Assembly (NCBI GenBank): GCA_963817305.1
Contig: CAWFOD010000017.1
Location: 357,821-421,820, forward strand
DNA from: an uncultured Acidobacteriaceae bacterium
GTDB taxonomy: Bacteria > Acidobacteriota > Terriglobia > Terriglobales > Acidobacteriaceae
Length of the DNA stretch: 64,000 nt
Reading direction: 5' to 3'
Shown: one piece after another, positions 3,902 through 45,000 of the stretch
Position numbering within the stretch: the first letter of the stretch is position 1
Layout: each line of letters starts with the position of its first letter
Notes under the pieces: generated by a model
The model's input: the letters and a program-made list of their open reading frames with translations, nothing else
Database searches by the model: none
Told to the model about the DNA's origin: nothing
Program-made: the position numbers and the translations under genes

Positions 3902-3977
3902 TGGTGAGCGCGGAAGGATTCGAACCTTCGACCCATGCCTTAAAAGGGCATTGCTCTACCAACTGAGCTACGCGCCC
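3902..3977 (-). tRNA. tRNA-Lys (anticodon TTT), CCA encoded
   Basis: Reverse complement is GGGCGCGTAGCTCAGTTGGTAGAGCAATGCCCTTTTAAGGCATGGGTCGAAGGTTCGAATCCTTCCGCGCTCACCA. It folds as a cloverleaf: 7-bp acceptor stem (one G-U), GCTC/GAGC D stem, ATGCC/GGCAT anticodon stem with loop CTTTTAA, and GAAGG/CCTTC T stem with TTCGAAT loop. Confidence 0.92.
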
Positions 3978-6552: not shown

Positions 6553-6912
6553 ATGGACACTGTCTTGCTGCGAACCACGGAACCTGTTGAAGACTCTTCC
6601 AGCCCTCACTTGGCTCAGCTTTTCGTGCGCTCGCAATCCGTAGTATCACGCCGCGTCGCCGGAGAGACTTTGATCGTTCCCGTGCGCGGCAAGGTTGGAG
6701 ATCTCGCGTCGATCTACAGCTTCAACCCAACCGGCTCTTTAATCTGGCAATCGCTCGAATCGCCGAAGAGTCTTGACGAATTGGTCAGCGTTGTCGAAAA
6801 CGAATACGCGGTCGAGCGCGATCAGGCGGAGCAAGACGTCAAACAGTTTTTGCACGACATGCTCGCGGCAGACTTGGTGCAGATTCGCGAGCCGCTACTG
6901 AGGGTGGGATAA
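6553..6912 (+). CDS. PqqD family peptide chaperone (RiPP recognition element)
   Basis: ORF 6493-6912. VVSRRVAGETLIVPVRGKVGDLASIYSFNPTGSLIWQSLESPKSLDELVSVVENEYAVERDQAEQDVKQFLHDMLAADLV matches the PqqD pattern. The start at 6553 (MDTV..) is a guess. Confidence 0.75.
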   Translation: MDTVLLRTTEPVEDSSSPHLAQLFVRSQSVVSRRVAGETLIVPVRGKVGDLASIYSFNPTGSLIWQSLESPKSLDELVSVVENEYAVERDQAEQDVKQFLHDMLAADLVQIREPLLRVG

Positions 6913-6924
6913 ATCAGGGGGACC

Positions 6925-8188
6925 ATGGAACAACTGAGTTACGGAGCATTCAGCGCGGACGTGCATCAGCGACAGTCCGGTCAGCGCGTGCCCATGCAGG
7001 TTTCCATCGAAGTCACCCGCCGCTGTCCGCTCGAGTGCCAGCACTGCTACAACAATCTTCCCATGGGCGATCAAGCCGCCCGCAGCCGTGAAATGACTAC
7101 CGAAGAGCATTTCAAAATGCTCGACGAACTGGTCGAAATGGATTGCTTCTGGCTTATCTACACTGGCGGCGAGATTTTCGCCCGCAAGGACTTTCTTGAG
7201 ATCTACACTCACGCCAAGCAAAAGGGCTTCCTGATTACGCTTTTCACCAACGGCACTCTTATCACCGAAAAGATTGCAGACTACCTGGTGGAATGGCCGC
7301 CCTTTGCCATCGAGATCACGCTCTACGGTCGCACCCGGGAAACCTATGAAGCCCTTACCCAAATCCCCGGCTCTTACGACCGCTGCCTGCGCGGAATCCG
7401 GCTCTTGCGCGAACGCGGATTGCCGGTCAAATTAAAGACCGTAGCTACTACGCATCAACAAACATGAAGTCTCCGCCATGCGGCAGTTTGCGGAAGAGGA
7501 GTTGGGCGTCGAGTTCAAGATGGATGGCCAGATCAATCCTCGGATTGACTGCTCTCAAAGCCCGCTGGCAGTGCGGCTTTCGCCGGAAGACGTGGTAGCT
7601 CTCGATATGCATGCTCCCAAGGGCGTGAGCGAATATCGCAGGTTGGCCAAAGATGAAATGGATCATCCTCCCAGCCTCTCGAAGAACGACACTGTGTATT
7701 TCTGCGGCGGAGGCCTCAATTCATTTGCCATTAATGCCTATGGAGAAATGGGAATTTGCGTAATTTCGCAGCAAGAGACGTTTGACATTCGCCGGGAAGG
7801 CCTGCAGCCCACCTGGGAGCATTCTCTGAAGGAGCTGCGCACCCGCAAACGCTCCCGCGTCACAAAGTGCATGCAGTGTCGCATTCAATCGCTCTGCGGA
7901 ATGTGTCCCGCCAATGGCGAAATGGAAAACGGCGACCGGGAGAGTCCAGTCGATTTTCTTTGCAACGTGGCACATCTGCGCGCAGCCGTGATCGGAGTTG
8001 AAATCCCGCAGCACGGAGAGTGCGAGTTCTGCGCTGGCGGTAGTCAGCACCAGGAGTTACTGGAGTCCGCGCGCCGTATCCAGACGAAAGAGATCGATGT
8101 AGACAGTTGGACCGGCAGGCAGCAAATTTTTCCGATTCTGAATAACGTCAGCGTGGCCGCCGGATGCGGTGGCTGTGGTAGTCACTGA
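6925..8188 (+). CDS. radical SAM/SPASM domain peptide-modifying enzyme; interrupted by a 1-nt insertion near 7447-7450 as sequenced
   Basis: ORF 6925-7467 has EVTRRCPLECQHCYNN (CxxxCxxC) and GGEIFARKD. ORF 7478-8188 continues the fold with SPASM-like Cys clusters (CGGGLNSFAINAYGEMGICV; CMQCRIQSLCGMC). Skipping one base gives ..KTVATRINKHEVSAMRQFAEEELGV.. Confidence 0.8.
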
Positions 8189-8212
8189 AAATAAAGCCAG
8201 AATCAAGGCCCT

Positions 8213-8380
8213 ATGAATCAGAAAACAAATCAAACCGAGGGCAAGAAAATCTACGAGTCGCCGAAACTGACGACTATCAGTCTCCGCCCGGAGGAAGCAG
8301 TTTTAGGCCATTGCAAAGTTGCCGGGACGGGGGGACCGGGCGGTATCTGTGGATTCACCTGTATGAACGCCGGATCCTAG
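8213..8380 (+). CDS. putative RiPP precursor peptide (55 aa, 3 Cys, C-terminal Ser)
   Basis: Below the ORF-track size cutoff. ATG 8213 to TAG 8378-8380 encodes MNQKTNQTEGKKIYESPKLTTISLRPEEAVLGHCKVAGTGGPGGICGFTCMNAGS. It lies 24 nt after the rSAM stop and 32 nt before the kinase-like gene, on the same strand. It contains a YxxPxL leader-like motif. Confidence 0.6.
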   Translation: MNQKTNQTEGKKIYESPKLTTISLRPEEAVLGHCKVAGTGGPGGICGFTCMNAGS

Positions 8381-8412
8381 CTGGTACTAATTCCCGGAGC
8401 CTGCGGTCGGAA

Positions 8413-9429
8413 ATGACGAGCCACCCTGTGCCGCGACTGACGAAACTCGACGATTCTCGTGCCGCACTTTACGGTGGCTTCTCCGTCGGCGGCGTATCTG
8501 TCCACCTTGCTGGTCAACGCCGCGCTGATGTTGCACTGGTCCCGCCTCTTCAGCCTTTTCACATTGACACAGGTGTTTCCGACATTCACGTTCGAGTTGA
8601 GTGGGTCGCGGGAATCGATTCATGCTGCGTTCCTCCACTGTTTGAATCCGGAGCTGTGTGGCGTGTGTACGAAGCGGAAGATAGCCTTCAGTTCGATTTC
8701 AACGTTCCCTTTCTCGGGTCGCAGCCCTACAAAAGGCTGATCGTAGACTCCCGCTTTCGCCAGGCGACGCTGCAGATGAATCAGCAATCGTTTGCGGCCG
8801 TACCCGGCGTTCCCGAGCCCTTAGAATATCCCCTCGACGAACTCCTCATCATGCACCGCCTCACCCAGGAGCCCGCGATCGAGCTGCACGGGGTCGGCAT
8901 CGTCGGCCCCAACGGGGCAAACAACTTATTCGTCGGCCATTCCGGAGCAGGGAAGAGCACCACCGCTCGCCTCTGGACCTCACTTCACGATGTTGACATC
9001 CTCAGCGACGACCGCATCATCGTTCGTGAACTTCCGGTCCGCGAACACCCGGTTCGCGAACACTCGGCTGAGGAAGATAAAATCCGTAGCAAAGCGTCTT
9101 ACGAAAGTAACCGCTTAGCAGACCCGAACCAGATCTACGTGTACGGCACCCCGTGGCATGGCGAAGCGCATTTCGCCCTCCCGCAGCGCGCTCCGCTGCA
9201 AAGAATTTTCGTTCTCGAACACGGCCACGGCAACATCCTCACCCGCCTCACGCGCAGCCAGGTGGTCGCCGAACTTTTCGCGCGTGCCTTCGTCCCCTTC
9301 CACCGTCACGAATACGTGGACCACGCCCTGAGCTTCCTGGAGCGCGTTGCCGATTCCGTCCCCTGCTATCGCTACTCCTTCGAGCCCGACGAGCGCGCCG
9401 TAGAAAAAATTCTTCAATTCAATGATTGA
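8413..9429 (+). CDS. HPr kinase-related (HprK C-terminal domain-like) P-loop protein
   Basis: ORF 8311-9429; the likely start MTSHPV is at 8413. LHGVGIVGPNGANNLFVGHSGAGKSTTARLW...LSDDRIIV is the HprK-like P-loop module. There is an internal 15-bp tandem duplication (PVREHPVREH, 9034-9063). The stop overlaps the next start (ATGATTGA). Confidence 0.75.
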   Translation: MTSHPVPRLTKLDDSRAALYGGFSVGGVSVHLAGQRRADVALVPPLQPFHIDTGVSDIHVRVEWVAGIDSCCVPPLFESGAVWRVYEAEDSLQFDFNVPFLGSQPYKRLIVDSRFRQATLQMNQQSFAAVPGVPEPLEYPLDELLIMHRLTQEPAIELHGVGIVGPNGANNLFVGHSGAGKSTTARLWTSLHDVDILSDDRIIVRELPVREHPVREHSAEEDKIRSKASYESNRLADPNQIYVYGTPWHGEAHFALPQRAPLQRIFVLEHGHGNILTRLTRSQVVAELFARAFVPFHRHEYVDHALSFLERVADSVPCYRYSFEPDERAVEKILQFND

Positions 9430-12400
9430 AAGTGAGTCCGATTCAGAGCGCTTCGAGGCCCTCAGCCGCGAGCTTCTGAGTAACGGATTTACCGTGCGCT
9501 TCGAGGCGCGCGGCGCCAGTATGTCCCCTTGCATCCGCAACGGCGAGATTGTGCATGTTACCGCCGTAATCGTGAGCAAATTACGGAAGGGCGATATTGT
9601 ACTTACGAAAGGTCATAGCGGATTCCGGGCTCACCGCCTCGTGCTTCTCGATCATGATAAGAATTTTTTCATTACTCGAGGCGATTGCGGACAGCAAGAC
9701 GATCCTCCGGTGCGCGCCGACCAAATCCTGGGCATTGTTCTCGCCAAAGAAGTGAGGCTTGGAACGAAAATCGTGACCGCGAACTTAAACGGTTTCACCG
9801 GCAAATTGTTGCAGGGGGCTGCTCGTGCGCAATATCTCGCGGGCAAGTTGCTTCGTGCTGCAACTTCGCGCACCTCGAATATCGCGCTGGCTTCACTTTT
9901 ATTGTTGTCGCTCGTCTCCTACTCGCGCGCCCAGGTTGTGATTGACGCTACTACGTCGACCTCGAGCTCTCTGAATGCCCGTGGGGCGCAGGCCATCACA
10001 TTTACGCATACGACCGCCGCCACCACGACTGGACTTTTGATCGTCGGCGTGGCCATGGACACCGTCAATGCGACCACAACGACGGTGAGTTCGGTCACCT
10101 ACAACGCCACCGGACTGAGTTTTCTGGGGGCGAAAAACGATGCCGCCAACAGCCGCCGGGTGGAAATGTGGTACCTGCTCAGCCCAACCGCCGGAACCAA
10201 TCTCAATGTTGTCGTAACGGTGAACATACCCGGAGCTGTAAATGAACGCGTAGGAGTCGTCGCAGGCGCAGTTACTTTCACCGGAGTAAATCAGGCTGTT
10301 CCCGTGGGCCCATTCGTATCCGCAAGTGGCGCAGCCGGTACAGCTTCTTCTGACACCGTACCCAGCGTTCTCAACGGTATGGTCATGGATACTCTGGCAG
10401 TCGCAGAAAATGTGACCGTTACGGTCCCCGGGACTCACACATCCCTCTGGAACGCAAGATCAGGCGCTGTTGTGGCCGGCGACGTGAGGAGCACCGGAAG
10501 CACTGCCCCCGGTTCTCCCAGCGTTTCCATGACCGAAACTTTCAGTGCCGCTTCCAATTGGGCGCAAGGAGCAGTATCCATCAACCCCGCAGCCCAGGTG
10601 ATCGTTGACGCCGCTACGTCAAAGGTGCAGGCAATCAACGGTTCTGGAATACAGACGGTAACCTTCGCTCATACCACGGCCACAACCACCACCGGGCTCT
10701 TGATCGTCGGCGTCGCCATGAACATCGTGAACGCGCCCACAACCACCGTAAGCTCGGTCACGTACAACGGCACGGCACTCCATTTTCTGGGAGCGCACAA
10801 CGATGCAGGCAACACTCGACGCGTCGAGATGTGGTACCTGCTCAGTCCAGCGGCGGGAACCTTTAACATCGTGGTCTCAGTCGACATACCCGGAGGCACC
10901 GCCGAACAAGTTGGCGTGGTAGCTGGTGCCGTGACATTTACCGGAGTCGACCAAACCGTTCCACTGAGTCCCTTTGTCTCTGCGGACGGCGCAAACGGCG
11001 CAAACTCGCAGCTCGATGTTCCCAGCGTGATTAATGGAATGATTCTGGATACGCTTTCGGTCACCGGAAATCAAACCGTCACCGTTCCTGGTCCACAGGT
11101 CTCGGAGTGGAATACAAATACCGGTGGCGGCGCGACGGATGTTCGCAGTTCCGGCAGCGCCCGCACTGGAGCGCCCAGCGTTCCTATATCCGAAACTTTC
11201 AGCGGCACCTCGAACTGGTCGCTTGGTGCCGTGTCCATCAATCCGTCTACCGCCGATATTGCCGTCACCACCAGTGTGGGCAGTGCGGTTTTTCTCGGAC
11301 AAAATACAACCTATAACATCACCGTCTCCAACAATGGCTACTCGGCCGCGAACTCGGTTACCCTCACTGACAGTCTGGCTTCTGGAATGACGCTTGTCTC
11401 TGTCACTCCCAGCGCGGGAACCACCTGCACCGGATCCGGTCCCATTACTTGTACTCTTCCCACTCCGTTTGCCAGCGGGGCCACCGCTACCATTGCGGTG
11501 GTGGAAACTGCCAGCGCCACCGGTTCATTTGCCAATACCGTCACCATCACGGATTCCGGAAGCCCCCCCGATCCCAACACTGGAAACAATTCCTACACAG
11601 CCGTCGCCACGGTGCAGTCAATTTCATGCGCTAGTGTTTCGCAGGCTACAACCGGAACGAACCTCTCCGGAATCTTGAACACTTACTATCCCGGAACCGC
11701 CAGTGTCACCGCCGGAGCCACCTCGATCCCCGTAGGTGCGGCAACCGGCGCTGGGACCGCCATCGCAGCTGGCAATCTTCTGCTGATTATCCAGATGCAG
11801 GATGCCAGCATTGACGACGCCAATACCATCGCTTACGGCAACGGCAGCACCGGCCAGGGATTCACGAATCTGAACAGCGCGGGCGATTATGAGTTCGTTA
11901 CCGCGCAAAACGCGGTTCCCGCAACCGGAGGATCCGTAACCATCACGGGAGCCGGTAGCGGCGGTGGAACGGTTTTCGCTTATCATTCCGCCGCAGTCTC
12001 GGCAAACGCGGGCCAAAGCAAGTATCAGGTGATTGTGGTGCCGCAATATTCCACGGCGTCATTCAACGCAACCACTCCGCCTACTGCACTCGCGTGGAAT
12101 GGTTCAACGGGCGGCGTGCTCGCGCTCGACACTTCCGGCACCCTGACGCTGAATGGAGCCACCATCGCCGTGGATGGTCTGGGCTTCCGCGGCGGTGCGG
12201 GAATGCAATTAACCGGCGGAGCCGGTGCCGCTACAGATTATGAAGCGCCCGCTCCCGCCACCTACACCGGGGCCGCTGGCGGCGAGGCCGGTTACGATGC
12301 CAACAAAGGCGAAGGTATTGCCGGCACACCTGCGTGGGTAGAATCGGGCACAACTTTTCTGCAGACGAATACCGGCTATCCCAGCGGCACTGCGGGCACC

Positions 12401-15400
12401 GATGGCAGCATGGCTCGCGGGGCACCCGGCAACGCAGGCGCCGGAGGCACCGACTCCGATCCCGTCAACAATGATCAGAACGCCGGCGGCGGCGGCGGTG
12501 CCAACGGTGGTGCCGGAGGTTTTGGTGGCGACTCCTGGAACACAAATCTCAGCGTAGGTGGCGAGGGCGGTACGGTTTTTCCCGCCACCATCAACCGCGT
12601 TGCCATGGGCGGCGGTGGTGGCGCGGGAACGCGTAACAATTCCGATGGCGACAATCAAGCCAGCGCTGGCGCGGCTGGCGGCGGCATCATCATTATTCGC
12701 ACCTACGGCCTCAGCGGGACCGGAACTCTCACGGCCAACGGCACTTCCGCTTATAACCTCACCGCCAATGATGCTGGCGGCGGCGGCGGAGCTGGCGGCA
12801 CGATCGTTGTTCTTTCCGCCAACGGCGGCGAGGGCGGTCTCACGCTGCAAGCCAACGGTGGGAATGGTGGTAACGCCTGGCAGGCAGAGCCCTACACTCT
12901 CGCCAATCGTCACGGCCCCGGCGGCGGGGGTGGCGGCGGCGTGGTTCTTATTTCTGGCGCACCGGCAAGTATTAGCCTGAGTGGCGGAGCCAGCGGCCTC
13001 ACTGAAAATCCCGGCGTCCCCTACGGTGCCACCGCTGGAGCGGCCGGCACAAGCGTCACCAACGCTTCCATCACCCAGACTTCCGGCACACAGTCCGGCG
13101 CGCAATGCACCCCCGATATGACGCTCGGCAAGAGCCATGTCGGCAACTTCACTCGCGGATCAACCGCCAGCTACACCATCCCGGTTGAGAACCTGAGCCC
13201 GTACGGCCCGACCAACGGCACCGTAACCGTGAACGATACGATGCCCGTCGGCCTCACTCCTACCAGCGCCACCGGTACCGGATGGTCTTGCTCTATCGCT
13301 TCCCAGACTGTGAGTTGCGTCACCTCCGCAGTTCTTCCGGCAAACAGTTTTTATCCTTCGCTTACCATTAACGCTAATGTTTTGCAGACCGCTCCTTCCG
13401 TCGAAACCAACACGGCGTTAGTAAGCGGCGGCGGTGAAGTGAATCTGGCGAATGACAGCGCTACCGATGTAGCTAACGTAATCTCAACCGCCGACCTCAG
13501 CATCGCCAATGCAGCCTCGCCAAATCCCGTGGCCGCGGGCAGCAACATCACTTATACGCAGGTAGTCACCAATAATGGTCCCAGCGCCGCCGACAACGCC
13601 TCGCTGGTGGAAGCGGTTCCCAACAACACTACGTTTGTTTCCATGGCAATACCTGCTGGCTGGAGTTGCACCACCCCAGCCGTTGGCAGCACCGGCAACG
13701 TGGTCTGTACGGATCTGAATATGGCGGGCAGCACAGCCGCCACTTTCTCGCTGGTCACCAAAGTAAATACCGGCACTGCCAACGGCACCGTAATTACCGA
13801 TACTGCGAATGTAAGTTCTTCAGTGAGCGATCCAAATTCGGCCAACAACACCGCTTCGGCTTCCACCATCGTAGGCACCGCTGCCGGAGCTCAGCTGGTT
13901 GTCACCAATGCCGCATCGCCAAACGGAGTTGCTCCCGGCGGCAACATTACTTATACGCAGGTAATTACGAATGTCGGCTCCCTCACAGCCACCGCGGCAA
14001 CTTTTACTGAGTCGACCGTGCCGGCGGCTGATGTGACGTATGTTTCCATCTCAACCGCCGCTGCCCCGGGTTGGACTTGCACTGCTCCCCCGGTAAGCTG
14101 CACCAATCCCAGCGTGGCCCCGGGTGCAACCGGCACCATCACGGCCGTTTACAAAGTGAATGCCACAACGCCGGTTGGGACGACCATCACCAATACTGCA
14201 ACGGTGAATGCCGGAAACCAGACAGGCGGCGCAAACTCTGCGATCGCAACCGACACAGTGACCGCAACCACTTCGCAAGCTGATCTTGCTCTCTCCACTG
14301 CCGCAACCCCGCTCTCGGTTTTTGCCGGCAATGATATTACTTACGTCCAGACCATTACGAACAGCGGCCCGGCGGCTGCCACAAGCGTGAGCTTCCTCGA
14401 GGCGGTGCCCACCAACACTACTTTCGCTTCCGTCTCGGCTCCCGCTGGTTGGAACTGCACTACGCCCGCCGTGGGCGCAACCGGAAATATAACCTGCACC
14501 GATACCAGCATGGCGGCCACGACATCCGCGTCCATCGTCGTCGTCGTCAACGTTCCCTCGAGTGTTACTGCTGCTGCGATCGCAGCGACCTCTTCGGTTT
14601 CCGCGACCAACGCACTCACCATCACCACCAACACCAGCACCCCTGTCACGGTCGCCTGCGACCTGGCGGTCAGCAACAGCGGCACACCCAGTCCCGTCGC
14701 CGCTGGAGCCACCATCACCTACACCCAGGTTGTGACGAACACTGGCCCGAGTAATTGCGCCAACGTGACTTTCAATGAAGCGATCCCCGCAAACACCACC
14801 TTCACGTCTTATGGCGGAGCTCCCGCTGGATGGACTTGCACCTCCTTCGCCACGGGTTGTACCAACCCCAGCTTCGCGCCCGGATCAATCAGCACCTTTA
14901 CCGTGGTCGTGACTGTGAACGCGGGCACTCCTGCAGGAACCATCATTACCGACACTGACACAGTTACCACCACATCCCGCGACACCAACACCAGCAATAA
15001 TTCCGCCACCGTTAACATCCCGGTAGCCAGCGCCACGCAGGCCGATCTCAGTGTTTCGAATTCCGCCAGTCCGAATCCCGTCTCGGCTGGAAACAACATC
15101 ACCTATACGCAGACCGTCGTGAATACCGGACCTGCGAGCGCCAGCACCATCACGCTCTCTGAAAGTCTGCCCGCGAACACTACGGCAGTGTCGCTGACCG
15201 GACCGGGTGGCTGGACTTGCACGGTGGGAACACTGACCTGCACGATCTCAACTTTAGGTGTCACCACTGCAAACTTCACATTCGTCGTGAAGGTGAACAA
15301 CAACGCAACCTCCGGCTCTACGATCACGCAAACCGATACAGTCACTTCCGCCAGCGATCCGAATCCCGGCAACAATAGCGCCTCGGCCAGCGTGCTCGTG

Positions 15401-18400
15401 GCCGGTTCGGCTGATCTCTCCGTTACGAATACCGCGAGCCCGGTGCCCGTGGTAGCGGGCAACAACATCACTTACACGCAAGTTGTGACCAACGCTGGAC
15501 CAAGCATCGCGGCCGGCGCCAGCTTTACCCAGACTACGCCGGCGAATACGACATTCTTTTCCATCGGCACTCTGCCTGCCGGATGGTCCTGCAGCACTCC
15601 CGCAGTCGGGAGCGCAGGGACCATCAACTGCACCAATCCCAGTTTTGCTCCGGGCTCAGCCAGCTTTACGGTCGCGCTTGCAGTAACCGCCGGAACCGCC
15701 GCCGGAACGGCCATCAAGGATATCGCTTCCGCAAGCTCATCAACGTCCGATCCCAATCCCGCGAACAATACTGCAATCGCCACCGACGTCGTCGCTCTCG
15801 CCACTCAAGCCGACTTAATCGTAACCAATACCGCGACGCCAACCTCAGTCGCCGCGGGAAACAACATCACCTACACGCAGAGCGTCACCAATAATGGTCC
15901 GGCTGCGGCAACCACCGTAAGCTTTACGCAAAGCACGCCACCGAATACCACCTTCCAATCCATCACCGCTCCCGGCTGGACATGCACCACTCCCGCCATC
16001 GGAGCCACGGGCACGATTACTTGTACTGTTGCCACGCTGGCACTCAATGCAAGCGCCAGCTTCACGTTAGTTCTGCAGGTAAATGCTGGAACCGCATCCG
16101 GCACAAACATTGCCGATACCGCGACGGCCACTTCTTCGAACATTGTTCCCAGCATCACCAGCAACACCGCGGTGGCAGCGGTTGTCGTGGCCAATGCAAA
16201 CAGCGCCAGTATCTCGATCGTGAAGACAGCCATGCCCACCCCCACCGTCCCCGAGGGCGATACGCTCACTTACACGATCGCCATAACCAATAATGGTCCG
16301 TCGTCCGCAACCAATGTAACCGTGACTGACCCGCTGCCAACGGATGTAACTTATCTCTCTTCCACCACCAGTGCCGGCACCTGCTCGGAAGCTGGTGGAA
16401 CCGTAACCTGTTTGCTGGGGACCATGGCCAATGGCGGCACCGCCACAATAACCATCCTCACCCTGGCCGGCGCGCCAGGAATCGCTACCAACACGGCGAG
16501 CGTGGTCGCAGATCAAATGACCACTCCGAATACATCTACGCAGATCGAGACCATCACCGCCGCCACTAGCATCAAGCTGGAATCATTCATTGCGCAGACT
16601 GGCCAGGATAAAACCGGCGCACACCGCGTCGTGCTCCTTTGGAAAACGGGCACGGAAGTGCACAACCTCGGCTTCAACATTTACCGCGAACAAGGCGGCG
16701 AGCGCGTTCGCCTGAATTCTTCCCTCATCGCCGGCTCGGCGCTGCTCATGAAAGGAGCCCTCCCCAAACATTCCGGCCGCACTTACACCTGGATCGATTC
16801 TTCTCCCGCCGCTGGCAGCGCTCCCTATTGGCTCGAAGACGTGGACGTGAACGGGACGCGTGTTCTTCACGGCCCGGTTTCCGCCACCGCATCCGGACTC
16901 TCCCAGATCGCCAGCAATGCCAAGGCAACTCCGAGTGTGATGTTGAATCATCTCAACCAGAGCCAGCCCGCAGCCTCCGTCGATGGATCCAGCCATCGCG
17001 TCGAAAACACTTCGCAGAATTCTTCTCCCGCTACTTCGCCTACTGCCGCGCAACAGCAGAAGCAGTTCGCTCTTGCGGCACACTCCGCGATCAAGATTTA
17101 TGTAAAGCACGAAGGCTGGTATTGCTTGGCGCAACCGCAACTTGTGGCTGCCGGCCTCAGCCCCAATGTCGATCCCGCTTATCTCCATCTTTATGCCGAA
17201 GCCATCGAGCAACCTGTGCAGATCACGGGAACCACCGCCGGTCTCCGAGGCTTTGGCCCGCAAGCTGCGATCTGTTTCTATGGCACGGGCATCGACACGC
17301 AATATTCCGGAACCAGAGTTTACTTCCTCGTCACGGAAGATTCGAAAGGGGCGCGCATTCACGACCTGCCCGTTTCAACGGGCTCGAATCAAGCTCCCGC
17401 AAGCTTTCCCCTTTACCGTGGAACTCGCGCCTCGTACAACTTATTACTCGGCCCTGACTAGCGCGAATGGTTACAATTTCTTCGGGCCACTCGTCTCCTC
17501 CACAGCCGTCGATGAGACCATTCAGGTTCCCCATCTTGATTCCACATCCACGGAATCCGCAAAGTTAGATGTGATTCTGCAAGGCGTGATTCTTGGCGTT
17601 CCTCACGACGTCACCGTCACGCTGAACGGCGCCTCGCTCGGCGACGTCACCTTTACCGGCGAAGCAAAAGGCACGCTCGATTTGACTTTGCCGCCGGGTG
17701 TTTTACAAGAAGGCGCCAACACGATCACACTCACGTCGCAAAACGGTGAATACGATTACAGCTTGCTGCAGTCGATCCGGATCACCTATCCGCATACCTA
17801 TGCCGCCGATTCGAACGAATTAACTTTCACCGGCCGCGCCGGGGATGAACTCAAACTCATCGGCTTCACGCAATCATCGGTCGTCGTGGTCGACATAACC
17901 GATCCCAACCAACCCGTACAACTTACGCCTCAGGTAACAACGGATCCGAAATCCGAAACCTATACAGCTGCGATACAGGTGCCATGGTCCACCACAAATC
18001 CATCCGCCCCGGCCCAGCACACGCTGATGGCTGTCGTTGGTGCCACCATCGCTTCGCCGGCAGGAATCCGTCAGAATCATCCATCACGCTGGTATAGCGC
18101 TCAATCCGGCAGCGAAATTGTAATGGTGACGTCTGACGACTTCGCCGGTGCTCTCGGTCCACTAAAACGCGCGCATGAAGCCTTGGGCAAGTCATCCGCG
18201 CTCGTGTCGGTCGACGATCTTTACGACGAATTCACTTTTGGTCAGCACAGTCCGGCTGCCATTCGCGCCTTCCTGCAAAATGCCGTTACAGCATGGCATA
18301 CTGCGCCCCATTATCTATTGCTGAATGGCCGCGCCTCGTTTGATCCGCGGAATTATCTCGGCTTTGGACATCTCGACTTCGTTCCCACTCAAATCATCGC

Positions 18401-19163
18401 CACGGCCGGCATGATGACCGCCTCTGACGATTGGTTCTCCGATTTCAACAACACCGGCATTCCGACCATCGCCACCGGGCGCCTGCCCGTGAGCACCTCC
18501 GCGGAAGCCCAGTTGGTAGCCGGAAAGATCGCCACCTACGAAGGCCAATCCACAAATGGTCCCTGGACCGCGCAGGCCCTCATGGTCGCCGATACGAACG
18601 ACACCGAAAACTTCACTACAGATAGCCAGCTCGCGCAGGCGCAGCTGCCTGCTTCAATGCAAGTAACGGATGTTTTCCTCACCACCACCTCCGTCCCCGA
18701 TGCCCAGCAGACAATTCTCACCTCCATCAACTCTGGTCAGTTGTTGGTGAATTACTCGGGCCACGGTTCTGAGGATGAATGGTCAGGAGAAAATCTTTTC
18801 AACAGCACCGAGGCGAGCACTTTGACCAACGGCTCTTCCTTGCCCGTCTTCCTCATCATGAATTGCCTGAATGGATTCTTTCAGGATGTTTACGAAGACC
18901 CGCTGGCAGTTTCTCTCATGCTCGCGCCCGACGGCGGTGCCGTTGCGGTTCTTGCTTCCAGCGGACTCAACCAGGCTCCGCCGCAAACCACTCTCGACAA
19001 ATTAGTGGTGCAGGCCGCCATGGGCCCATCGCGCCTGCCATTAGGCGATGCGATCATTAAAGCGAAGTCTGGCATCACCGACCTCGCCGTGCGCAAAACC
19101 TACAACCTGCTCGGAGACCCGGTGATGCAAATCAAGCCCCCGGTCTCGACTCACAAGCACTGA
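9422..19163 (+). CDS. giant surface protein: N-terminal S24/S26-type Ser peptidase domain, TM segment, two ~215-aa repeats, Gly-rich region, ~10 DUF11 repeats, C-terminal C25 (gingipain-like) peptidase domain; 1-nt insertion near 17408-17411 as sequenced
   Basis: ORF 9422-17461 (2679 aa) plus ORF 17142-19163. N-terminal motifs: GASMSPCIRNGEIVHV, FRAHRLV, ITRGDCGQQDDP. Hydrophobic IALASLLLLSLVSY follows. DUF11 units repeat ADLS..SPNPV.AGNNITYTQ.V.N.GPS...GW.CT. The C25 domain shows VNYSGHGSEDEWSG and FLIMNCLNGFF. Skipping one base of the cccc run joins ..SNQAPASFP to FTVELAPRTTYYSAL.. Confidence 0.75.
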
Positions 19164-19189: not shown

Positions 19190-20218
19190 TTAAGCCCGCG
19201 CCATATCCGCAACCACGGCCGCTCGCCGCAGAGGTTCGGCGATCGCCTTCATTACTTTCTCAAATCCCGCGAAGTCGAGCGATTGCGCTCCATCGGAGAG
19301 CGCCCGCTCCGGGCAGGGATGCACTTCGATAATCAATCCGTCGGCTCCCACCGCAACCGCTGCCCGTGACACCGCTGCGATTAGACTCTGCTTCCCGGTT
19401 CCATGCGAAGGATCGGCGATCACCGGCAAGTGCGAAAGATCCCGAGCCAGCGCCACTGCCGCCAGATCGAATGTGTTCCGCATCTCCGTTTCGAATGTCT
19501 TAATCCCGCGCTCGCAAAGCACGACTTCACTATTTCCTCCGGAAAGCAAATATTCCGCCGCCAGCAGCCACTCTTTTACCGTGGCCGACGGACCGCGCTT
19601 CAAGAGGATCGGCTTCTTGATTGTCGCCAGTCTCCGCAATAGCGCAAAGTTCTGCATATTCCGCGCTCCCACCTGCAGCATGTCCACGTACTCGCAGATG
19701 ATGTCCACATCCTCCGTGCTCATCACTTCGGTGACCACCGGAAGCCCAGACTCCTCGCGCGCTTCGCGGAGAATCTTCAGCGCCTCCACTCCCAATCCTT
19801 GAAAGTCGTAAGGTGACGTTCGCGGCTTGTAGGCCCCGCCCCGCAGCATTGTCGCTCCCGCCCGTTTTACGGCATGCGCCGTATCCAGCAACTGCTCGCG
19901 AGACTCCACCGAGCACGGCCCCGCAATAATCACCACTCCCGGCCCGCCGATGCTCACGCCGCCCACGTTCACCACCGTGCCCTCTGGCTTTACCTGCCGG
20001 CTCACCAGCTTGAAGGGCTGTGCAATGGCGACTACATTCTCCACTCCGCCCGCTACCGCAAGGGCTTCGATTTCGTGGCGTCGTCCATTCCCCACCGCGG
20101 CCACGATCGTCCGCTCCACGCCGCGTGTGACGTGCGGTTGATAGCCCGCCTCGCGAATGCGCTCAATTACGTGAGCAATCTGCTGCTCGGTGGCTTTCTC
20201 TGACATGTTCACAATCAT
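19190..20218 (-). CDS. aroF: 3-deoxy-7-phosphoheptulonate (DAHP) synthase, type I-beta with N-terminal regulatory domain
   Basis: ORF 19190-20251. The start [26 protein letters not shown] at 20218 is preceded by GAGGAGG. Also [20 protein letters not shown] and DPSHGTG motifs. Confidence 0.85.
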
Positions 20219-20242
20219 CGGTCTGCCCTCCTCAGGATTTGC

Positions 20243-20282
20243 CAAAAGCAAAGGCCGCGATCCTTGGATCGCGGCCTTTGGC
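20243..20282 (-). terminator. rho-independent terminator (minus strand)
   Basis: Minus strand reads AAAGGCCGCGATCC-AAG-GATCGCGGCCTTT followed by GCTTTTGG. It lies downstream of the flp gene and directly upstream of aroF. Confidence 0.55.
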
Positions 20283-20747: not shown

Positions 20748-22283
20748 CTAAAGAGGTTCCCGCACCACAGAAACTGGAGTCGGCGAGGTTTGCGCCGGCG
20801 CCGGCAAACTCTGCTGGACCAGTTGTTGCGCCGAACTCTGCGCAAACTTCAAAACATCGCTGGGAAATATTCCCAGGTAGAGCGTCGCCGCCACACATGC
20901 CGCCAGAGCCAGGCTCAATGGGATCGGAATCCGGCTCACCGGAACCTCTTTGCGCGCCTCCCGCATGTACATCACAACGATGATGCGCAGGTAGTAATAA
21001 GCGCCGATTCCACTGTTCAGCACGCCAATCACCGTCAGCCAGATCAGGTTCGCTTTCACTGCAGCGCTGAACACGTAGAATTTCGCAAAAAATCCGCCCG
21101 TCATCGGAATGCCGATCAGCGATAACAGAAAGATGGTGAGCGTGGCCGCCAGCAGCGGAGAACTGCGTCCCAGCCCTTCATAGTCCTCCAGCGTCACATA
21201 ACGTTCGCCCGCGTTGGCGAAGTGGCTCACCACGGCAAACGCTCCCACATTCATCGCGGCATAACTCGCCGTATAAAACATTGCCGCCGAAATACCCAGC
21301 GTCGGCGCAGTGGCGAAAGCTACCAGCAGATATCCCGCGTGTGCGATCGAAGAATAGGCCAGCAGCCGCTTCACATTGGTCTGCACCAGTGCGCCCACGT
21401 TGCCTAAAGTCATCGAAAGCGCCGCCGTCACCCAAATCACCCAGAAGATGGCATGGACGTTAATCACAAACACAATGCGCAACAAAACCGCAAACGCCGC
21501 GGCCTTGGGCGCGGTCGACATCAATCCCACAATCGGCGCCGGCGCTCCTTCATACACGTCCGGTGTCCACACGTGGAATGGCGCTGCCGCCACCTTGAAT
21601 CCCAAACCCACAAACATGAACGCCACGGCCACGAACGCCAGCAAGGGAATCGGCCCCGCCAGCAGCGCTCTGCTGATCTGGTCGATGTTGGTTGATCCCG
21701 TGGCCCCAAACATCAACGCCACGCCATACAGAAAAAATGCCGTGGCAAACGACCCCAACAGAAAATACTTCAGCGATCCTTCCGCGCTGCTCGCCTCATG
21801 CAGCCGGAATCCCGTCAGCACATACGAAGAGATGGAAGAAATCTCGAGCGCGATAAAAATCAGAACCAGTTCCACCGCCGAGGACATCAGCGCCATGCCG
21901 ACTGCGCCGAAAAGAACCAGCGCGTAATACTCTCCGGCGCGAATCCGCTGTACCGCCATGTATTCGTACGAGCTGAGAATCACGACGGCAACAATCGCGA
22001 TCACCAGAACATTGAAAAAAACGCTGAACTTATCCACTTGCACCGTGTTCCAGAAGGCCGGTCCAGGCGACTGCGCCATGATCCAGGTCGCCCCGAGCCC
22101 CACCAGCGATCCCACGAACGCCACGATCCCCAGAACTTTTTGCCCGGTCCGCTCATCCAGCAGCGGTTCCATCAACATCACAATGACGCCAAACACGGAG
22201 AGAACAATCTCAGGCAGCACGCGCACGTAATCGGCGCTCTGTGGCAGCGTTTGCGAATAAGCTGGGAAAAGAGTCGCGATCAC
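20748..22283 (-). CDS. nuoN: NADH-quinone oxidoreductase subunit N
   Basis: 511-aa polytopic antiporter-like subunit. It is last in the nuo order and its start overlaps the nuoM stop. Confidence 0.9.
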   Translation of the reverse strand: MIATLFPAYSQTLPQSADYVRVLPEIVLSVFGVIVMLMEPLLDERTGQKVLGIVAFVGSLVGLGATWIMAQSPGPAFWNTVQVDKFSVFFNVLVIAIVAVVILSSYEYMAVQRIRAGEYYALVLFGAVGMALMSSAVELVLIFIALEISSISSYVLTGFRLHEASSAEGSLKYFLLGSFATAFFLYGVALMFGATGSTNIDQISRALLAGPIPLLAFVAVAFMFVGLGFKVAAAPFHVWTPDVYEGAPAPIVGLMSTAPKAAAFAVLLRIVFVINVHAIFWVIWVTAALSMTLGNVGALVQTNVKRLLAYSSIAHAGYLLVAFATAPTLGISAAMFYTASYAAMNVGAFAVVSHFANAGERYVTLEDYEGLGRSSPLLAATLTIFLLSLIGIPMTGGFFAKFYVFSAAVKANLIWLTVIGVLNSGIGAYYYLRIIVVMYMREARKEVPVSRIPIPLSLALAACVAATLYLGIFPSDVLKFAQSSAQQLVQQSLPAPAQTSPTPVSVVREPL

Positions 22284-23797
22284 TGTCCCACCATCCTGCT
22301 CGCCACCCGCACGAACGGCGTGAGCGCCGCCTGTACCGCTGGATCAATCGCTCCCAGCCACAAAATCGGAGCCACTCCCATCACCAGCGCCGCCACAGCG
22401 CACGGCCACACCGCCCATTTTTCGAATCCCGAGAGATCACTCAAAGAATTATTCACCGCGTGCGTAACCTTGCCGTAAAAAACCCGCTGGTACATCCAAA
22501 GCAAATAAACTGCACTCCAGATAATTCCGGTGGCTGCAAGAATTCCGTAAATCGGCTTATCCTGAAAAGATCCGCTCAGCACCAGAAATTCGCCGATGAA
22601 CCCGTTAAACAAAGGCAGTCCCACCGACGCCAGCACAATTACAAGAAACGAAGCAGAGTAAATCGGCATGGGCGAAGCCAATCCGCCAAATTCGCTGATT
22701 TCATAGGTATGCCGCCGCTCGTGCAGAATCCCCGCCAGCATGAACAATCCGCCTGTGGAAACTCCATGCGCCAGCATGACGAACATCGCGCCATTCAACC
22801 CCGCCTGCGTGAAGCTGAAAATCCCCAGCACCACGAATCCCAGATGGCTCACCGACGAATACGCGATCAGTTTCTTCATGTTCGGCTGCACCATCGCCAC
22901 CAGCGCGCCGTAAATAATCCCGATCAGCGCCAGAATCATGATCCACCAGGCGTTGTGCCGCGATTGCTCGGGAAACAATCCAAGGTTGAATCGCAACAGC
23001 CCATACGTTCCCATCTTCAAGAGCACGCCTGCCAGCAACACGGAGCCCGCCGTCGGCGCCTCCACGTGCGCATCCGGCAACCACGTGTGGAACGGAAACA
23101 GCGGAACCTTCACCGCAAACGCCAGAAAGAATCCCAAAAACAGCCACTGCGCCGCAGCTGGAAACCCCGGCACAGCACCGCTCGCGATCTGTTCGCGAAT
23201 TGTTACGAAGTCAAACGATCCGGTATGCGCATAGAGCCATAGAATCGCCGCCAGCATGAACACCGATCCAATCATCGTGTACATGAAGAATTTCACCGCG
23301 GCATACACTTTGCGCTCGTGACCGAAAATGCCGATCACCAGCGCCATGGGAATCAGCGTCGCTTCCCAGAAGAAATAAAAGAGAAAGAGGTCCAGCGAAG
23401 TGAACACGCCAATCAGCGCGGTCTCCAGAATCAGCAGCAGGATGAAAAATTCCTTTACCCGCTCGTGAATCGAGTTCCAGGAAATCAGCACGCACAACGG
23501 CGTGAGAAATGTCGTCAGCACCACCAGCCACAAAGAAATTCCGTCGATTCCCATGTGGTAGTGGATGTTGGGAGTCGAAACCCACTGCCGGTCAACCTGA
23601 AACTGAAATTCACTTTGCCCGCGATGGAAATAAACCGGCAGATGCAGAGACAGAACAAACGTCAGCAGCGAAATTACCAGCGCAAAAATCCGGATGTCGC
23701 GGTCGCGTCGGGGAAACATGACCAGCAGCAATCCGCCCGCCAGAGGGAGGAACGTCACCAGCGTAAGAATGATGGAGCTGAGATTGTCCGTACTCAT
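22280..23797 (-). CDS. nuoM: NADH-quinone oxidoreductase subunit M
   Basis: ORF 22280-23860. The start [12 protein letters not shown] at 23797 overlaps the nuoL stop (ATGA). Typical NuoM motifs are present (WLPDAHVEAPTAGSVLLAG). Confidence 0.9.
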   Translation of the reverse strand: MSTDNLSSIILTLVTFLPLAGGLLLVMFPRRDRDIRIFALVISLLTFVLSLHLPVYFHRGQSEFQFQVDRQWVSTPNIHYHMGIDGISLWLVVLTTFLTPLCVLISWNSIHERVKEFFILLLILETALIGVFTSLDLFLFYFFWEATLIPMALVIGIFGHERKVYAAVKFFMYTMIGSVFMLAAILWLYAHTGSFDFVTIREQIASGAVPGFPAAAQWLFLGFFLAFAVKVPLFPFHTWLPDAHVEAPTAGSVLLAGVLLKMGTYGLLRFNLGLFPEQSRHNAWWIMILALIGIIYGALVAMVQPNMKKLIAYSSVSHLGFVVLGIFSFTQAGLNGAMFVMLAHGVSTGGLFMLAGILHERRHTYEISEFGGLASPMPIYSASFLVIVLASVGLPLFNGFIGEFLVLSGSFQDKPIYGILAATGIIWSAVYLLWMYQRVFYGKVTHAVNNSLSDLSGFEKWAVWPCAVAALVMGVAPILWLGAIDPAVQAALTPFVRVASRMVGQ

Positions 23798-25827
23798 CGC
23801 GCTCCCGTCCACATCCAGATCATGAAGGCGATCACCACTGCCGAACCCGCCGCAATCCATCCCGCGTACGAGCGAATGTTGCCCGACTGCATGTGGCGAA
23901 CTTCATCGGAAACATGCCTGGCGCCGTATCCCGCGTCGTTCACGGTGGCATCGATAATCTTCTGGTCCACGCCGTGCCACAGAACTCGCGTCGAAAAATT
24001 GATGAGCGGCTTCACAAAGACCGCGCCGTAGAGTTCATCCACATAATATTTGTGCACCAGTGTCTGGTATGCTCCCGCCATCGAGGTCGCAATCTTGTCC
24101 GGTAAGTCCGTCCGCCGGTAATAAAGTTGCCATGCAAGTCCAAACCCCAACAGCGCCGCCAGCACCGAAATCCCCGTAAACATCAACTCGGTCGAAACTC
24201 CAGTCTTCGGCTCCGGACCCTCGGTCTCCTTCTCTGGCACTCCTTTTTCATCTACGGCCGAGGGCTGCGCATTGCCTGGAGCGCTGCCGTGAAATACCGG
24301 TCCGAGAAATTTGTCGAACCGATTGTTTCCGCCCAGCGATCCCGGCACTCCCACATATCCGCCCACCACCGAAAGCACCGCCAGAATTACCAGAGGGATC
24401 ACCATCACCCTGGGGCTCTCGTGAATCCCGCCGTGTCCGTGCCCTCCGTGCGCACCATCCGCCGAGTGGCTTCCATGGCCGTGTTCCGCCTCGCCTCGAT
24501 ACTCACCGAAGAAAGTCATAAACCACAGCCGGAACATATAGAACGATGTGAGCAACGCAGTCACCACTCCTACCAGCCAATAAGCCCAACTCGCCTGGTA
24601 AGAGCGCCACAGTATTTCGTCTTTGCTGAAGAAGCCGGAAAACCCAGGAATTCCGGAGATCGCCAACGTGGCTGCAGTCATGCACCAGAACGTCCACGGA
24701 ATTTTCTTCCGCAACCCGCCCATCTTGCGCATGTCCTGCTCGCCGCCTACCGCATGGATCACCGAGCCCGCCGCCAGAAACAACAGCCCTTTGAAAAATG
24801 CGTGCGTCATCAGATGAAAAATTCCGGCGGAGAACGCGCCCACTCCGCATGCCATGAACATGTAGCCCAGTTGCGAAACCGTCGAGTAAGCCAGAACTTT
24901 CTTGATGTCAGTCTGCGCAATGCCAATTGTCGCCGCAAAAAATGCCGTGAGCGTTCCAATAATCGCAACCACCGTCAGCGCAATCGGCGCTCGTTCAAAA
25001 ATCACGTGCGATCGCGAAACCATGTACACGCCCGCCGTCACCATGGTCGCGGCATGAATCAAAGCCGAAACCGGCGTCGGACCTTCCATCGCATCCGGAA
25101 GCCAAATGTACAACGGAATCTGCGCCGACTTCCCGCACGCACCTACCATCAGCAGAATGCCAATCGCCGTCAGCAGTCCGGCGCCGTCCTTCTCGGCTCC
25201 CATGGGCAGAACGCTCTGAAACACCTGATCAAAATTCAGCGAACCAAAATGCTTGATGAGCAAAAACAACGCAATCAGAAATCCAAAGTCTCCAATGCGA
25301 TTTACGATGAACGCTTTCTTGCCCGCCGCCGCTGCCGAATTCTTGGTGAACCAGAAACCAATCAGCAGATACGACGCCAGCCCCACGCCCTCCCACCCGA
25401 TAAACATCATCAGATAGTTGGCCGACAGTACCAGCGTCAGCATGAAAAACATGAATAGATTCAGATAGCTGAAAAAGCGATAGTAGCTGGGATCCTCCCA
25501 CATGTAGCCGACGGAATAGACATGGATCAGAAATCCAACTCCCGTCACCACCAGCAGCATCACTAGCGACAGTTGATCGAGATAAAACGCGAAGTCAACG
25601 CTGAAACTTCCTGACCGTATCCAATGCGCAAAATATTCATGATAGGGAAGCGTGAGCGAAGAAAACTGCATCGCGACCCACACTGCCATTGCAAACGCAG
25701 CCCCGCTGAACACCAAAGCAATCGTGGTAACGGCCTTGCGCGACGACTTTTTCCCGAAGAAGCCGTTAATCGCGGCGCCCGCGAGCGGCAGAATCGGGAT
25801 CAGCCAGAGATTGAGCATGGGATTCAT
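23794..25827 (-). CDS. nuoL: NADH-quinone oxidoreductase subunit L
   Basis: ORF 23794-25971. The start [17 protein letters not shown] at 25827 overlaps the nuoK stop. [22 protein letters not shown] motif. Confidence 0.9.
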
Positions 25828-26138
25828 AGCTTGAGCAGGTTCACCTGATCCACATTCAATGTCTCCCGCGTGCGATAAACCGCGATAATGATCGCCAGTC
25901 CGACCGCCGCTTCCGCCGCCGCCACCACCATCACAAAGAAAACAAATACCTGCCCCGCCAGCGCGTGCCAATGCGCCGCGAACGCCACAAACGATAGATT
26001 CACCCCGTTCAGCATCAGTTCAATCGACATAAAGATGGTGATGATGTTGCGCTTGATCAGAAACCCAACCACGCCGCAGCCAAACAAGAATCCGCTGAGC
26101 AGCAAATAATAAGAGAGTGGCACATACGACGGAACCAT
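25824..26138 (-). CDS. nuoK: NADH-quinone oxidoreductase subunit K
   Basis: 104 aa with 3 TM segments, positioned between nuoJ and nuoL. Confidence 0.9.
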
Positions 26139-26656
26139 CAGTCCACCTTCCTCGCCGTCGCTTCCGGCTTGCTCGCCAGCACCACGGCTCCCATGATGGC
26201 AATCAGGATTAATACAGAAGTAACTTCAAACGGCAGCAGAAAATCGTGAAAAAGAAGCTGCGCAATCTCTGTGGGATGTCCCGGCAATGCCCCGATCGGC
26301 ACCGACTCCGTTACCGAATGCCGCACCACCACCCACGCCATCAGTACGCTGCTGGTCAGTACACCAGGCACGCCAAACAATAAGGCGATGCGGCTCCCCT
26401 TGGTCTCTTCCTCCACGCCTGCATTGAGCAGCATGATTACGAAAACAAACAACACCATGATCGCCCCGGCATAAACAATCACTTGCACAGCGGCGACGAA
26501 TTCTGCCCCCAGCAATAAATATTCCCCGGCCAGCGCCGCCATCACCGCAATCAGCGACAGCGCGCTATTGATCGGATGCCGCTGCGCCAGCAGGTTCACC
26601 GCCCCGCCCACGCAAACCGCGCCAAACGCGAGAAATAGAATTAGATGGAAACTCAT
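26138..26656 (-). CDS. nuoJ: NADH-quinone oxidoreductase subunit J
   Basis: 172 aa. [35 protein letters not shown] is typical of NuoJ. Confidence 0.9.
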
Positions 26657-44110: not shown

Positions 44111-45000
44111 TGTCATCCTGAGGCAGGAGTCCTCGGCTACGCCGAGGACTCCCAACGAAGGACCTATGCAATTCGCCGACAGCACACAAGCTGGCGGGCA
44201 GCCTCACACGCGCTTCCATTTCCACGACCGAGGCTGCCCCACTCGTCGCGCTTTTCGACGAGTGGGAACCACGGACCTCAAAGTTCCGTTTCCGTCGCCA
44301 CCACAAGCGCCTGGGGCGGCCAATGAATATTCATGCGACTTCAGCCGACGCCCATTCTTCCGCATCTTGATTAACCACAATTGTCATCCTGAGGCAGCGG
44401 AGTCCTCGGCTACGCCGAGGACTCCCAACGAAGGACCTATGCAACTCGCCGACAGCACACAAGCTGGCGGCCCGCCTCACACGCGCTTCCATTTCCACGC
44501 CCGAGGCTGCCCCACTCGTCGCGTTTTTCGACGAGTGGGAACCACGGACCTCAAAGTTCCGTTTCCGTCGCCACCACAAGCGCCTGGGGCGGCCAATGAA
44601 TATTCATGCGACTTCAGCCGACGCCCATTCTTCCGCATCTTGATTAACCACAATTGTCATCCTGAGGCAGCGGAGTCCTCGGCTACGCCGAGGACTCCCA
44701 ATGAAGGACCTATGCAACTCGCCGACAGCACACAAGCTGGCGGGCAGCCTCACGCGCGCTTCCATTTCCACGCCCGAGGCTGCCCCACTCGTCGCGTTTT
44801 TCGACGAGTGGGAACCACGGACCTCAAAGTTCCGTTTCCGTCGCCACCACAAGCGCCTGGGGCGGCCAATGAATATTCATGTGGCTTCAACCGACGCATT
44901 CTTTCGCGTGTCGACCAACGCCGATTGTCATCCTGAGGCAGCGGAGTCCTCGGCTACGCCGAGGACTCCCAACGAAGGACCTATGCAATTCGCCGAGGCA
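44111..45000. repeat. tandem array of three ~271-273-bp units, each with two long hairpins
   Basis: The module tgtcatcctgaggcag..ggagtcctcggctacgccgaggactcccaacgaaggacctatgcaa recurs at 44111, 44382, 44655 and 44926. Each unit also carries cccactcgtcgcg(c)ttttcgacgagtggg. Related single hairpins lie at 43940-44105. Confidence 0.9.

Follow-up and report, generated by a model that had tools for sequence, protein, structure and literature searches.

The genome of an uncultured Acidobacteriaceae bacterium (GenBank assembly GCA_963817305.1) was found to carry, in the 64,000-nt stretch of contig CAWFOD010000017.1 analysed here (positions 357,821 to 421,820 of the forward strand, hereafter the window), five plus-strand genes, packed tightly and read in one direction, that probably form a maturation cassette for a peptide that is made by the ribosome and modified after translation (RiPP). 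The cassette occupies window positions 6553-19163 and encodes a discrete PqqD-family RiPP recognition element (RRE) of 119 aa (6553-6912), a radical SAM (rSAM)/SPASM peptide-maturase-like enzyme (6925-8188), a precursor peptide of 55 aa (8213-8380), a 338-aa P-loop kinase-like protein predicted to have the PEPCK/HPr-kinase fold and belonging to the Pfam ScmC family (8413-9429), and a giant protein of about 3,247 codons (9422-19163) that opens with a domain resembling archaeal/SipW-type signal peptidase I. It is a new combination rather than a wholly new system, with a known RRE/kinase/peptidase logic joined to an rSAM enzyme, and its chemistry and product are predicted by analogy. A preliminary description of the window, prepared from the DNA sequence without database searches, had reported the five-gene layout correctly, but two of its gene models, those for the rSAM enzyme and the giant protein, were wrong, each of these genes carrying one extra base in the window.

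In the proposed pathway, the discrete PqqD-type RRE would bind the 55-aa precursor via the YxxPxL motif of its leader, and the rSAM/SPASM enzyme would modify the Gly/Ser/Cys-rich core, most likely by cross-linking its three conserved Cys residues in thioether fashion. For RRE-dependent SPASM enzymes acting on Cys-containing cores, thioether-type chemistry is the commonest outcome. The HprK/ScmC-like kinase would phosphorylate a Ser, most likely the invariant Ser at the C-terminus as in paeninodin, and the cytoplasmic SipW-like Ser/His domain of the giant protein would remove the leader in an RRE-dependent manner, as does LppS, the leader peptidase of a Bacillota system described below. Cleavage would probably occur at or near the junction between PEEAVLG and xCK. 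Each chemical step is proposed by analogy, and the place of the cut, the residue that is phosphorylated and the orientation in the membrane are inferred too.

Observed directly were the genes and their domains, the conserved residues, the synteny, the gene fusions and the selection acting on the peptide. A scan of species-representative genomes found a relative in 410 of them, of which the best 80 were inspected, and gene linkage was read from 83 loci that stand for 80 species. In all 83, wherever the contig reaches, the order is PqqD, rSAM/SPASM, peptide, P-loop protein and peptidase, with the C25 domain following, and the PqqD gene lies 5' of the rSAM gene in every locus with a contig extending that far upstream. 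An arrangement conserved to this degree is far beyond chance. The best 80 genomes are all metagenome-assembled genomes (MAGs), most of them titled Acidobacteriota (Ca. Sulfotelmatobacter, Acidoferrum, Terriglobales). Four loci (L049, L058, L063 and L079) come from records with non-Acidobacteriota titles (Ca. Aquilonibacter, Dormiibacterota, Verrucomicrobiia) and have typical cassettes; these odd titles may point to mis-binning or lateral transfer.

The product of the peptide gene has a leader with the motif Y14xxP17xL and the segment L24RPEEAVLG32, and a core of the form H33-C-K...C46...C50-MNAG-S55. The small open reading frame (ORF), present as first described, sits between the rSAM and P-loop genes in 83 of 83 related loci, and its homologues are conserved. 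A search with a profile built from eight peptides returned 3,580 clusters at 90% identity, all labelled 'hypothetical', and motif statistics were taken over 194 distinct sequences. The last residue is Ser in all 194, preceded by Gly (final GS) in 193, and PEEA[VI]LGxCK is present in 193; among these motif-bearing peptides, YxxP stands exactly 12 residues upstream of the motif in 192, and 190 have a core with exactly three Cys. From the last Cys, 5 or 6 residues remain to the end. Cores are rich in Gly, Ser, Cys and Thr, with Asp, Glu and Arg nearly absent, and their sequences vary strongly between species. The 36-nt motif was recovered in 82 DNA versions, with variation of 0.055, 0.019 and 0.394 at codon positions 1, 2 and 3 respectively, and had zero occurrences on the minus strand. 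Because the motif is conserved while the DNA variation falls at third codon positions, the 55-codon ORF is a genuine precursor gene under protein-level selection, and its conserved leader and variable core on a fixed scaffold correspond to the classic RiPP pattern. The proposal that this is an rSAM-modified RiPP system, made initially from the gene content, thus gains from finding the small ORF, under such selection, beside PqqD/rSAM genes in every related locus.

The identification of the first gene as a PqqD-family RRE was borne out by Pfam (PF05402, E 8.5e-16). Its closest NCBIfam models are lasso-peptide PqqD chaperones (3.2e-11), every one below its cutoff, and the RRE is encoded apart from the rSAM gene. 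The rSAM enzyme, once its frame was repaired, was found to contain CPLECQHC and, as read from the sequence, the complete SPASM cysteine pattern CX12GX4C...CX2CX5CX3C...C, and it matches Pfam Radical_SAM at 4e-20. In these respects the first account of it holds, but the gene is not one ORF in the window and the Pfam SPASM score (17.8 bits) is under the 21.5 cutoff. Placement in a known cofactor- or protein-maturase family, named initially as a ground for doubt, was not seen: no curated NCBIfam model of that kind claims the enzyme, the best scores being far under the cutoffs; the weak full-length NCBIfam matches are peptide maturases throughout (MftC, GeoRSP, PapB, ScmF), and the nearest solved relatives are PqqE (3e-10) and SkfB. 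The C-terminal tail of the enzyme (8020-8188) has two further CxxC pairs past SPASM, GECEFC and GCGGCGSH, which are kept even in the distant relatives L090 and L093 and may represent an additional metal or cluster site.

Both of the larger genes are interrupted in the window. In the ORF listing the rSAM gene falls into two parts that are read in different frames (6925-7467 and 7478-8188), and so does the giant gene (9422-17461 and 17142-19163). Alignment located one extra base near 7453 in the rSAM gene, absent in relatives L004, L007, L013, L015 and L095, and a single extra base near 17404 in the giant gene, detected against four close relatives and L095. The protein of some 3,250 aa in the preliminary description is thus not one ORF in the window. 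Intact orthologues measure 420-421 aa for the rSAM enzyme and 3,017-3,335 aa for the giant protein. Two independent +1 insertions, in the operon's two largest genes, speak for a reading in which both frameshifts are real and the cassette of this genome is a decaying pseudogene cluster. That reading is improbable: L095, at 98.4% DNA identity to the window, has neither insertion, its rSAM gene is intact (420 aa) and its own breaks lie elsewhere, one of them in an unrelated ROK gene; long-read 'MFD' MAGs are the source of 16 of the 18 interrupted giant genes among the related loci; and the rest of each window gene is open and conserved. Since L095 has neither frameshift and interrupted giant genes are concentrated in this way, both are probably long-read assembly errors. 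A selenocysteine codon at TGA 7465 was also considered and rejected, as the downstream ORF is in another frame and the relatives show a 1-base indel.

The fourth gene was found where it had been placed, with its GHSGAGKST motif, while its designation as HprK-like stands on fold, motif and transitive homology and not on a direct match to a hidden Markov model (HMM) or a PDB sequence. Sequence and profile searches of the window protein against PDB, Pfam and NCBIfam returned only Walker-A matches, to ABC ATPases and AAA_33, and an exact-sequence look-up found no record. An AlphaFold2 (AF2) model computed from a 76-sequence alignment reached a pLDDT of 76.8 and a pTM of 0.72 (pLDDT 34 from the single sequence). 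Foldseek matched this model to ATP-dependent PEP carboxykinases, with E down to 3e-6 and TM about 0.4, and to the HPr kinase/phosphatase 1knx at E 1e-3. By established structural classification, PEP carboxykinases and HPr kinases have a fold in common. Four residues, H159, K181, D199 and D200, do not vary across the aligned relatives and reproduce the His-Lys-Asp-Asp motif that is essential in lasso-peptide kinases (PMC9266682). A kinase profile search over 1.84 billion representatives gave 5,565 clusters (at 50% identity) with E<=1e-3 and 484 with E<=1e-30; ten more distant relatives, scanned from among the 150 listed, showed weak, consistent matches to models for HprK-related kinase B, ScmC, HprK-related kinase A, HPr kinase and PEPCK, and relatives of the window kinase carry the precomputed Pfam label PF27840 'ScmC'. 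Taken together, the fold model, the motif and the chain of homology suggest that the HprK-like assignment is right in kind.

A low-complexity insert in the P-loop protein at aa ~205-235 (window 9025-9120), with the sequence RELPVREHPVREHSAEED..., has a pLDDT below 50; homologues have there a repeat of the (R/K)ED(K)V type that differs in length, with an insertion of ~90 aa in one of them.

The possibility that the kinase-like gene belongs to polysaccharide loci, which had been named initially as a ground for doubt, was ruled out. The gene travels with the peptide module, and the cassette is flanked by genes for a sugar-binding protein, a ROK protein, DAHP synthase and the nuo proteins.

The giant protein begins with the peptidase domain (aa 1-135, 9422-9826). 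It matches TIGR02228 at E 1e-9 (38.4 bits, cutoff 51.85) and aligns weakly (E 0.4-1.4) with the catalytic motifs of human SEC11A/C, and its residues S33, M34, H71, R72, T85-D88 and D94 are invariant in 76 distinct sequences. By these sequence criteria it is a Ser-His signal peptidase I domain of the S26B, archaeal/SipW type. Of the S24/S26-type start described at first, the S26 part stands, but a LexA-type S24 peptidase was ruled out, the Ser-His arrangement with GDxxxxDD motifs and the TIGR02228 and SEC11 matches all pointing to S26B. Within the first 200 residues, the part examined by a Kyte-Doolittle scan and alignment, there is a single hydrophobic segment (aa ~153-171, 9878-9934). It resembles a signal anchor or an internal signal peptide, and a conserved RAQV.VD comes after it. 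The peptidase domain precedes this segment and, because basic residues stand before the segment (positive-inside rule), is placed in the cytoplasm, the remainder of the giant protein presumably being exported.

The exported part, which goes beyond what had been described before, would consist of a long stalk and a C-terminal Peptidase_C25 domain. The stalk region (approximate limits 11189-16546) has 10 DUF11/CLIPPER repeats, with a match to Pfam DUF11 at E 6e-133 over 10 stretches and to NF047640 at 2e-32, and is interrupted by a Gly-rich AgmC_N-like region (giant protein aa 745-1182). The CLIPPER domain builds the extracellular stalks of fibrillar adhesins and contains isopeptide bonds (PMC12617251). 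The C25 domain (18120-19130), gingipain/PorU-like, matches Pfam PF01364 at E 7e-73 and NF033707 (PorU) at 5e-59, the latter below cutoff. Peptidase and C25 domains are within one unbroken reading frame in 52 loci; 45 of these giant frames are complete (3,017-3,315 aa) and 7 run past the end of the fetched DNA. Straight after the signal-like segment, at aa ~172-600 (window 9935-11200), the giant protein has two tandem modules of ~215 aa with the pattern QV[VA]IDA...SINP, about 70% alike, to which no Pfam or NCBIfam model was matched.

In the window the stop codon of the P-loop gene overlaps the start of the giant gene (ATGATTGA, 9422-9429), as first noted. The peptidase is not always attached to the giant protein. 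In some Terriglobia loci (L084-L088) it stands alone, with 155-178 aa, and is followed by a separate giant gene, and two distant lineages (P0288 and P0343) have it joined to the kinase's C-terminal end. Because of these kinase-peptidase fusions and the stop/start overlap in the window, kinase and peptidase are taken to act in one pathway. The two fusion lineages have PqqD, rSAM, an ORF of 52-60 aa and the kinase::peptidase gene, and their peptides read ...KPEEAVLGGCK...ITS and ...RPEEAVLGFCK...PGS. In one of them (L090-92) a LamG/C25 protein of 1,216 aa comes after the module; the other (L093/L094) is without a C25 protein and has an NTP_transf_5 gene 2 kb upstream. Three further contexts agree, and in all five of the more distant ones the peptides keep PEEAVL[G/A]xCK, three Cys and the C-terminal Ser; the truncated L098 peptide fragment has LGxCK.

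The domain assignments of the last two genes can be read differently, in that the P-loop protein may be no peptide kinase at all, acting as an ATP-dependent scaffold or a phosphorylase, and/or the S26-like domain may not cut the peptide and may instead serve the giant protein as its own signal peptidase, in the manner of SipW. SipW works as a signal peptidase dedicated to fibre proteins (cited in PMC13381572), a conserved RAQ site accompanies the signal-like segment of the giant protein, and the window P-loop protein shows sequence matches at the Walker-A level only. Yet the catalytic His-Lys-Asp-Asp set is invariant, and it is hard to see what else would explain the invariant Ser at the peptide's C-terminus. 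The peptidase, being N-terminal of the hydrophobic segment, would be on the wrong side of the membrane for a signal peptidase, and in P0288 and P0343 its fusion partner is the kinase, in a sequence without any obvious hydrophobic segment. This reassignment is therefore considered very unlikely.

The link to the giant protein raises a further possibility, that the peptide is its dedicated accessory, being handed to, ligated to or used by the CLIPPER/C25 protein, a PorU-like transpeptidase, or serving it as a cofactor or metal-binding peptide. In every Terriglobia locus with sufficient sequence the module is followed by a C25 protein, and in L090-92 by a different one (that of 1,216 aa); in 52 loci the proposed leader peptidase is part of the giant protein itself, no exporter gene was found in the 64-kb window, and inheritance looks vertical and syntenic beside DAHP synthase. 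L093 and L094, however, have the module and no C25 protein, other loci have the peptidase alone or joined to the kinase, the core is highly variable between species as in bioactive RiPPs, and no mechanism is at hand that would connect a peptide in the cytoplasm with a protein that is exported. An accessory role is thus regarded as unlikely, although less so than the reassignment of the two enzymes.

Maturation of a modified and phosphorylated peptide, the preferred interpretation, finds its closest parallel in the Linear Polyphosphorylated Peptides (LPP) of Bacillota, made by LppA, LppB, LppK and LppS (Popov et al., Nat Commun 2026, PMC13381572). In LPP a precursor with a YxxPxV leader is presented by the discrete RRE LppB, the HprK-like LppK polyphosphorylates Ser3 of the core, and LppS, a SipW-like signal peptidase I with catalytic S29, H68 and D93, cuts the leader only when it is RRE-presented (PMC13381572). 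The leader consensus is YxxPxVLxHQxIxFETxxS, and the core gene set includes an NTP-transferase as well as an exporter similar to MsbA (PMC13381572). The cassette shares with LPP a discrete PqqD-type RRE, a YxxPx[V/L] leader motif, a homologue of archaeal/SipW-type signal peptidase I that has a Ser-His-Asp set, the absence of a lasso cyclase and, judged by fold and motif, probably an HprK-like kinase (LppK being compared by its description). It differs in having an extra rSAM/SPASM enzyme and a three-Cys core, in the leader after YxxPxL (xxISLRPEEAVLGxCK against VLxHQxIxFET), in the place of the conserved Ser (C-terminal against Ser3), and in having the peptidase fused with the kinase or with a giant CLIPPER/C25 protein. 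The hosts are Acidobacteriota rather than Bacillota, and inheritance is apparently vertical, and syntenic, rather than patchy. The LPP report describes that system as restricted to Bacillota and mentions neither radical SAM enzymes nor Acidobacteria (PMC13381572). The LppS precedent therefore explains the peptidase domain that the first reading of the window could not place.

The paeninodin-type lasso systems (PadeK, ThcoK, SyanK, PsmK) have in common with the cassette an HprK-like kinase with the His-Lys-Asp-Asp motif, a discrete RRE, a [Y/W]xxP leader and a strictly conserved C-terminal Ser in the precursor, which in the lasso systems is the phospho-acceptor. The suggestion of paeninodin-type phosphorylation at this Ser, made before the homologues were collected, is therefore strengthened by its invariance. 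Unlike these systems, the cassette has an rSAM enzyme and a proposed serine leader protease in place of the B2 cysteine protease. Neither an Asn-synthetase-like lasso cyclase nor a B2 transglutaminase-like protease was found in the cassette genes or the ten flanking genes scanned, in agreement with the preliminary description.

SynChlorMet (TIGR04248 ScmD, TIGR04249 ScmC, TIGR04250 ScmE, TIGR04251 ScmF) is a bioinformatic family with no known product that shares with the cassette a PqqD homologue, an rSAM/SPASM enzyme and an HprK-like protein of the ScmC family. Window scores are 24.1 against a cutoff of 100 for ScmD, 98.3 against 400 for ScmE and 52.8 against 400 for ScmF, and the ScmC model gave no match to window proteins at E<=0.01. 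The cassette has one rSAM gene where SynChlorMet has two, and it has a clear precursor and a peptidase. With the ranthipeptides and sactipeptides (PapB, SkfB) it shares an rSAM/SPASM enzyme with an RRE and an adjacent small Cys-containing precursor; the enzyme scores 55.7 bits against PapB (cutoff 340) and 85.3 against StsB (cutoff 625), and these classes have no counterpart of the kinase, the proposed serine leader peptidase or the giant partner. A literature search (SynChlorMet, ScmC, and Acidobacteria with rSAM, kinase and signal peptidase) found no description of the cassette, and a peatland survey of biosynthetic gene clusters lists only the generic classes 'ranthipeptide' and 'RRE-containing'. 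The initial view that the gene combination could not be assigned to a named class must accordingly be narrowed: the RRE/kinase/SipW-peptidase set has been described as LPP since May 2026 (PMC13381572) and the PqqD/rSAM/ScmC set as SynChlorMet.

Several points weigh against the proposed pathway. The evidence for the cassette comes from sequence and a structural model; the window kinase has no significant direct match to HprK, and its Foldseek TM-scores are modest (about 0.4 for PEPCK, 0.27 for HprK). The score of the peptidase domain sits under the NCBIfam cutoff, and phosphorylation in LPP is at Ser3 of the core and not at the C-terminus. A tblastn search with an NTP_transf_5 protein for the NTP-transferase found nothing (best E 2.2), and no LSGG[QEM] ABC signature of an exporter, which LPP has, was present in any frame of the window. 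Single-copy, syntenic and apparently vertical inheritance beside housekeeping genes is unusual for an antibiotic-type RiPP, and with its rSAM and giant genes frameshifted in the window, the locus could be dead in this genome.

If the proposal holds, the kinase/SipW-peptidase logic, first shown experimentally in 2026, extends from Bacillota to Acidobacteriota and is there joined to radical SAM chemistry. Among the Terriglobia dominant in peat and acid soils the cassette is strictly conserved, and no database checked has a name for it. Its predicted products, small peptides rich in Gly, Ser and Cys whose loops vary on a fixed scaffold, would lend themselves readily to heterologous expression and mass spectrometry, and the obligate giant neighbour, isopeptide-stabilised and C25-capped, may point to a function other than antibiosis. 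A bolder conjecture, put forward with considerable reserve, is that the cassette defines a new RiPP class in which an rSAM-cross-linked, C-terminally phosphorylated peptide matures at the membrane, has as its leader peptidase the cytoplasmic head of a giant exported adhesin and is functionally coupled to that adhesin, for example by being loaded onto it or ligated by its PorU-like C25 transpeptidase domain. If true, the chemistry of ribosomal peptides would be tied to the assembly of surface fibres in one of the dominant phyla of soil.

Promoter and terminator scans of 6.2-9.5 kb gave results at or below shuffle expectation. A scan of Rfam had a tRNA gene (75 bits, 3905-3977, minus strand) as its sole match, with no riboswitch or leader RNA. 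On the 3' side of the cassette, also on the minus strand, are a DAHP synthase gene (19190-20251), which is a conserved neighbour in many related loci, and a run of nuo (complex I) genes (20748-26656).

Farther along the window, a minus-strand pair at 51099-53899 consists of a DUF2290 protein gene (215 aa) overlapping the start of a gene for a 718-aa UvrD-like helicase. It matches the paired PADLOC models PDLC02998/9 and PDLC03002 (E 3e-131) and is a candidate anti-phage defence pair. A PD-(D/E)XK endonuclease gene is at 54520-55074 (minus strand), and a second radical SAM gene at 48572-50755 (minus strand, 727 aa), with an HMPTM-type zinc ribbon and unrelated to the cassette, has weak PADLOC viperin (pVip) matches (2e-12). 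The GC content falls to 0.49-0.52 at 45000-48500, against about 0.56 elsewhere; this low-GC stretch includes a SocA/Panacea antitoxin-domain gene (45802-46335, minus strand) and small ORFs without family match, and it may be an acquired island beside defence-like genes. Over ~49500-54500 the GC skew switches sign, going from about -0.15 to values of +0.2 or +0.35, with the long ORFs keeping to the minus strand, a change that could reflect a replication-related switch, a rearrangement or an assembly join.

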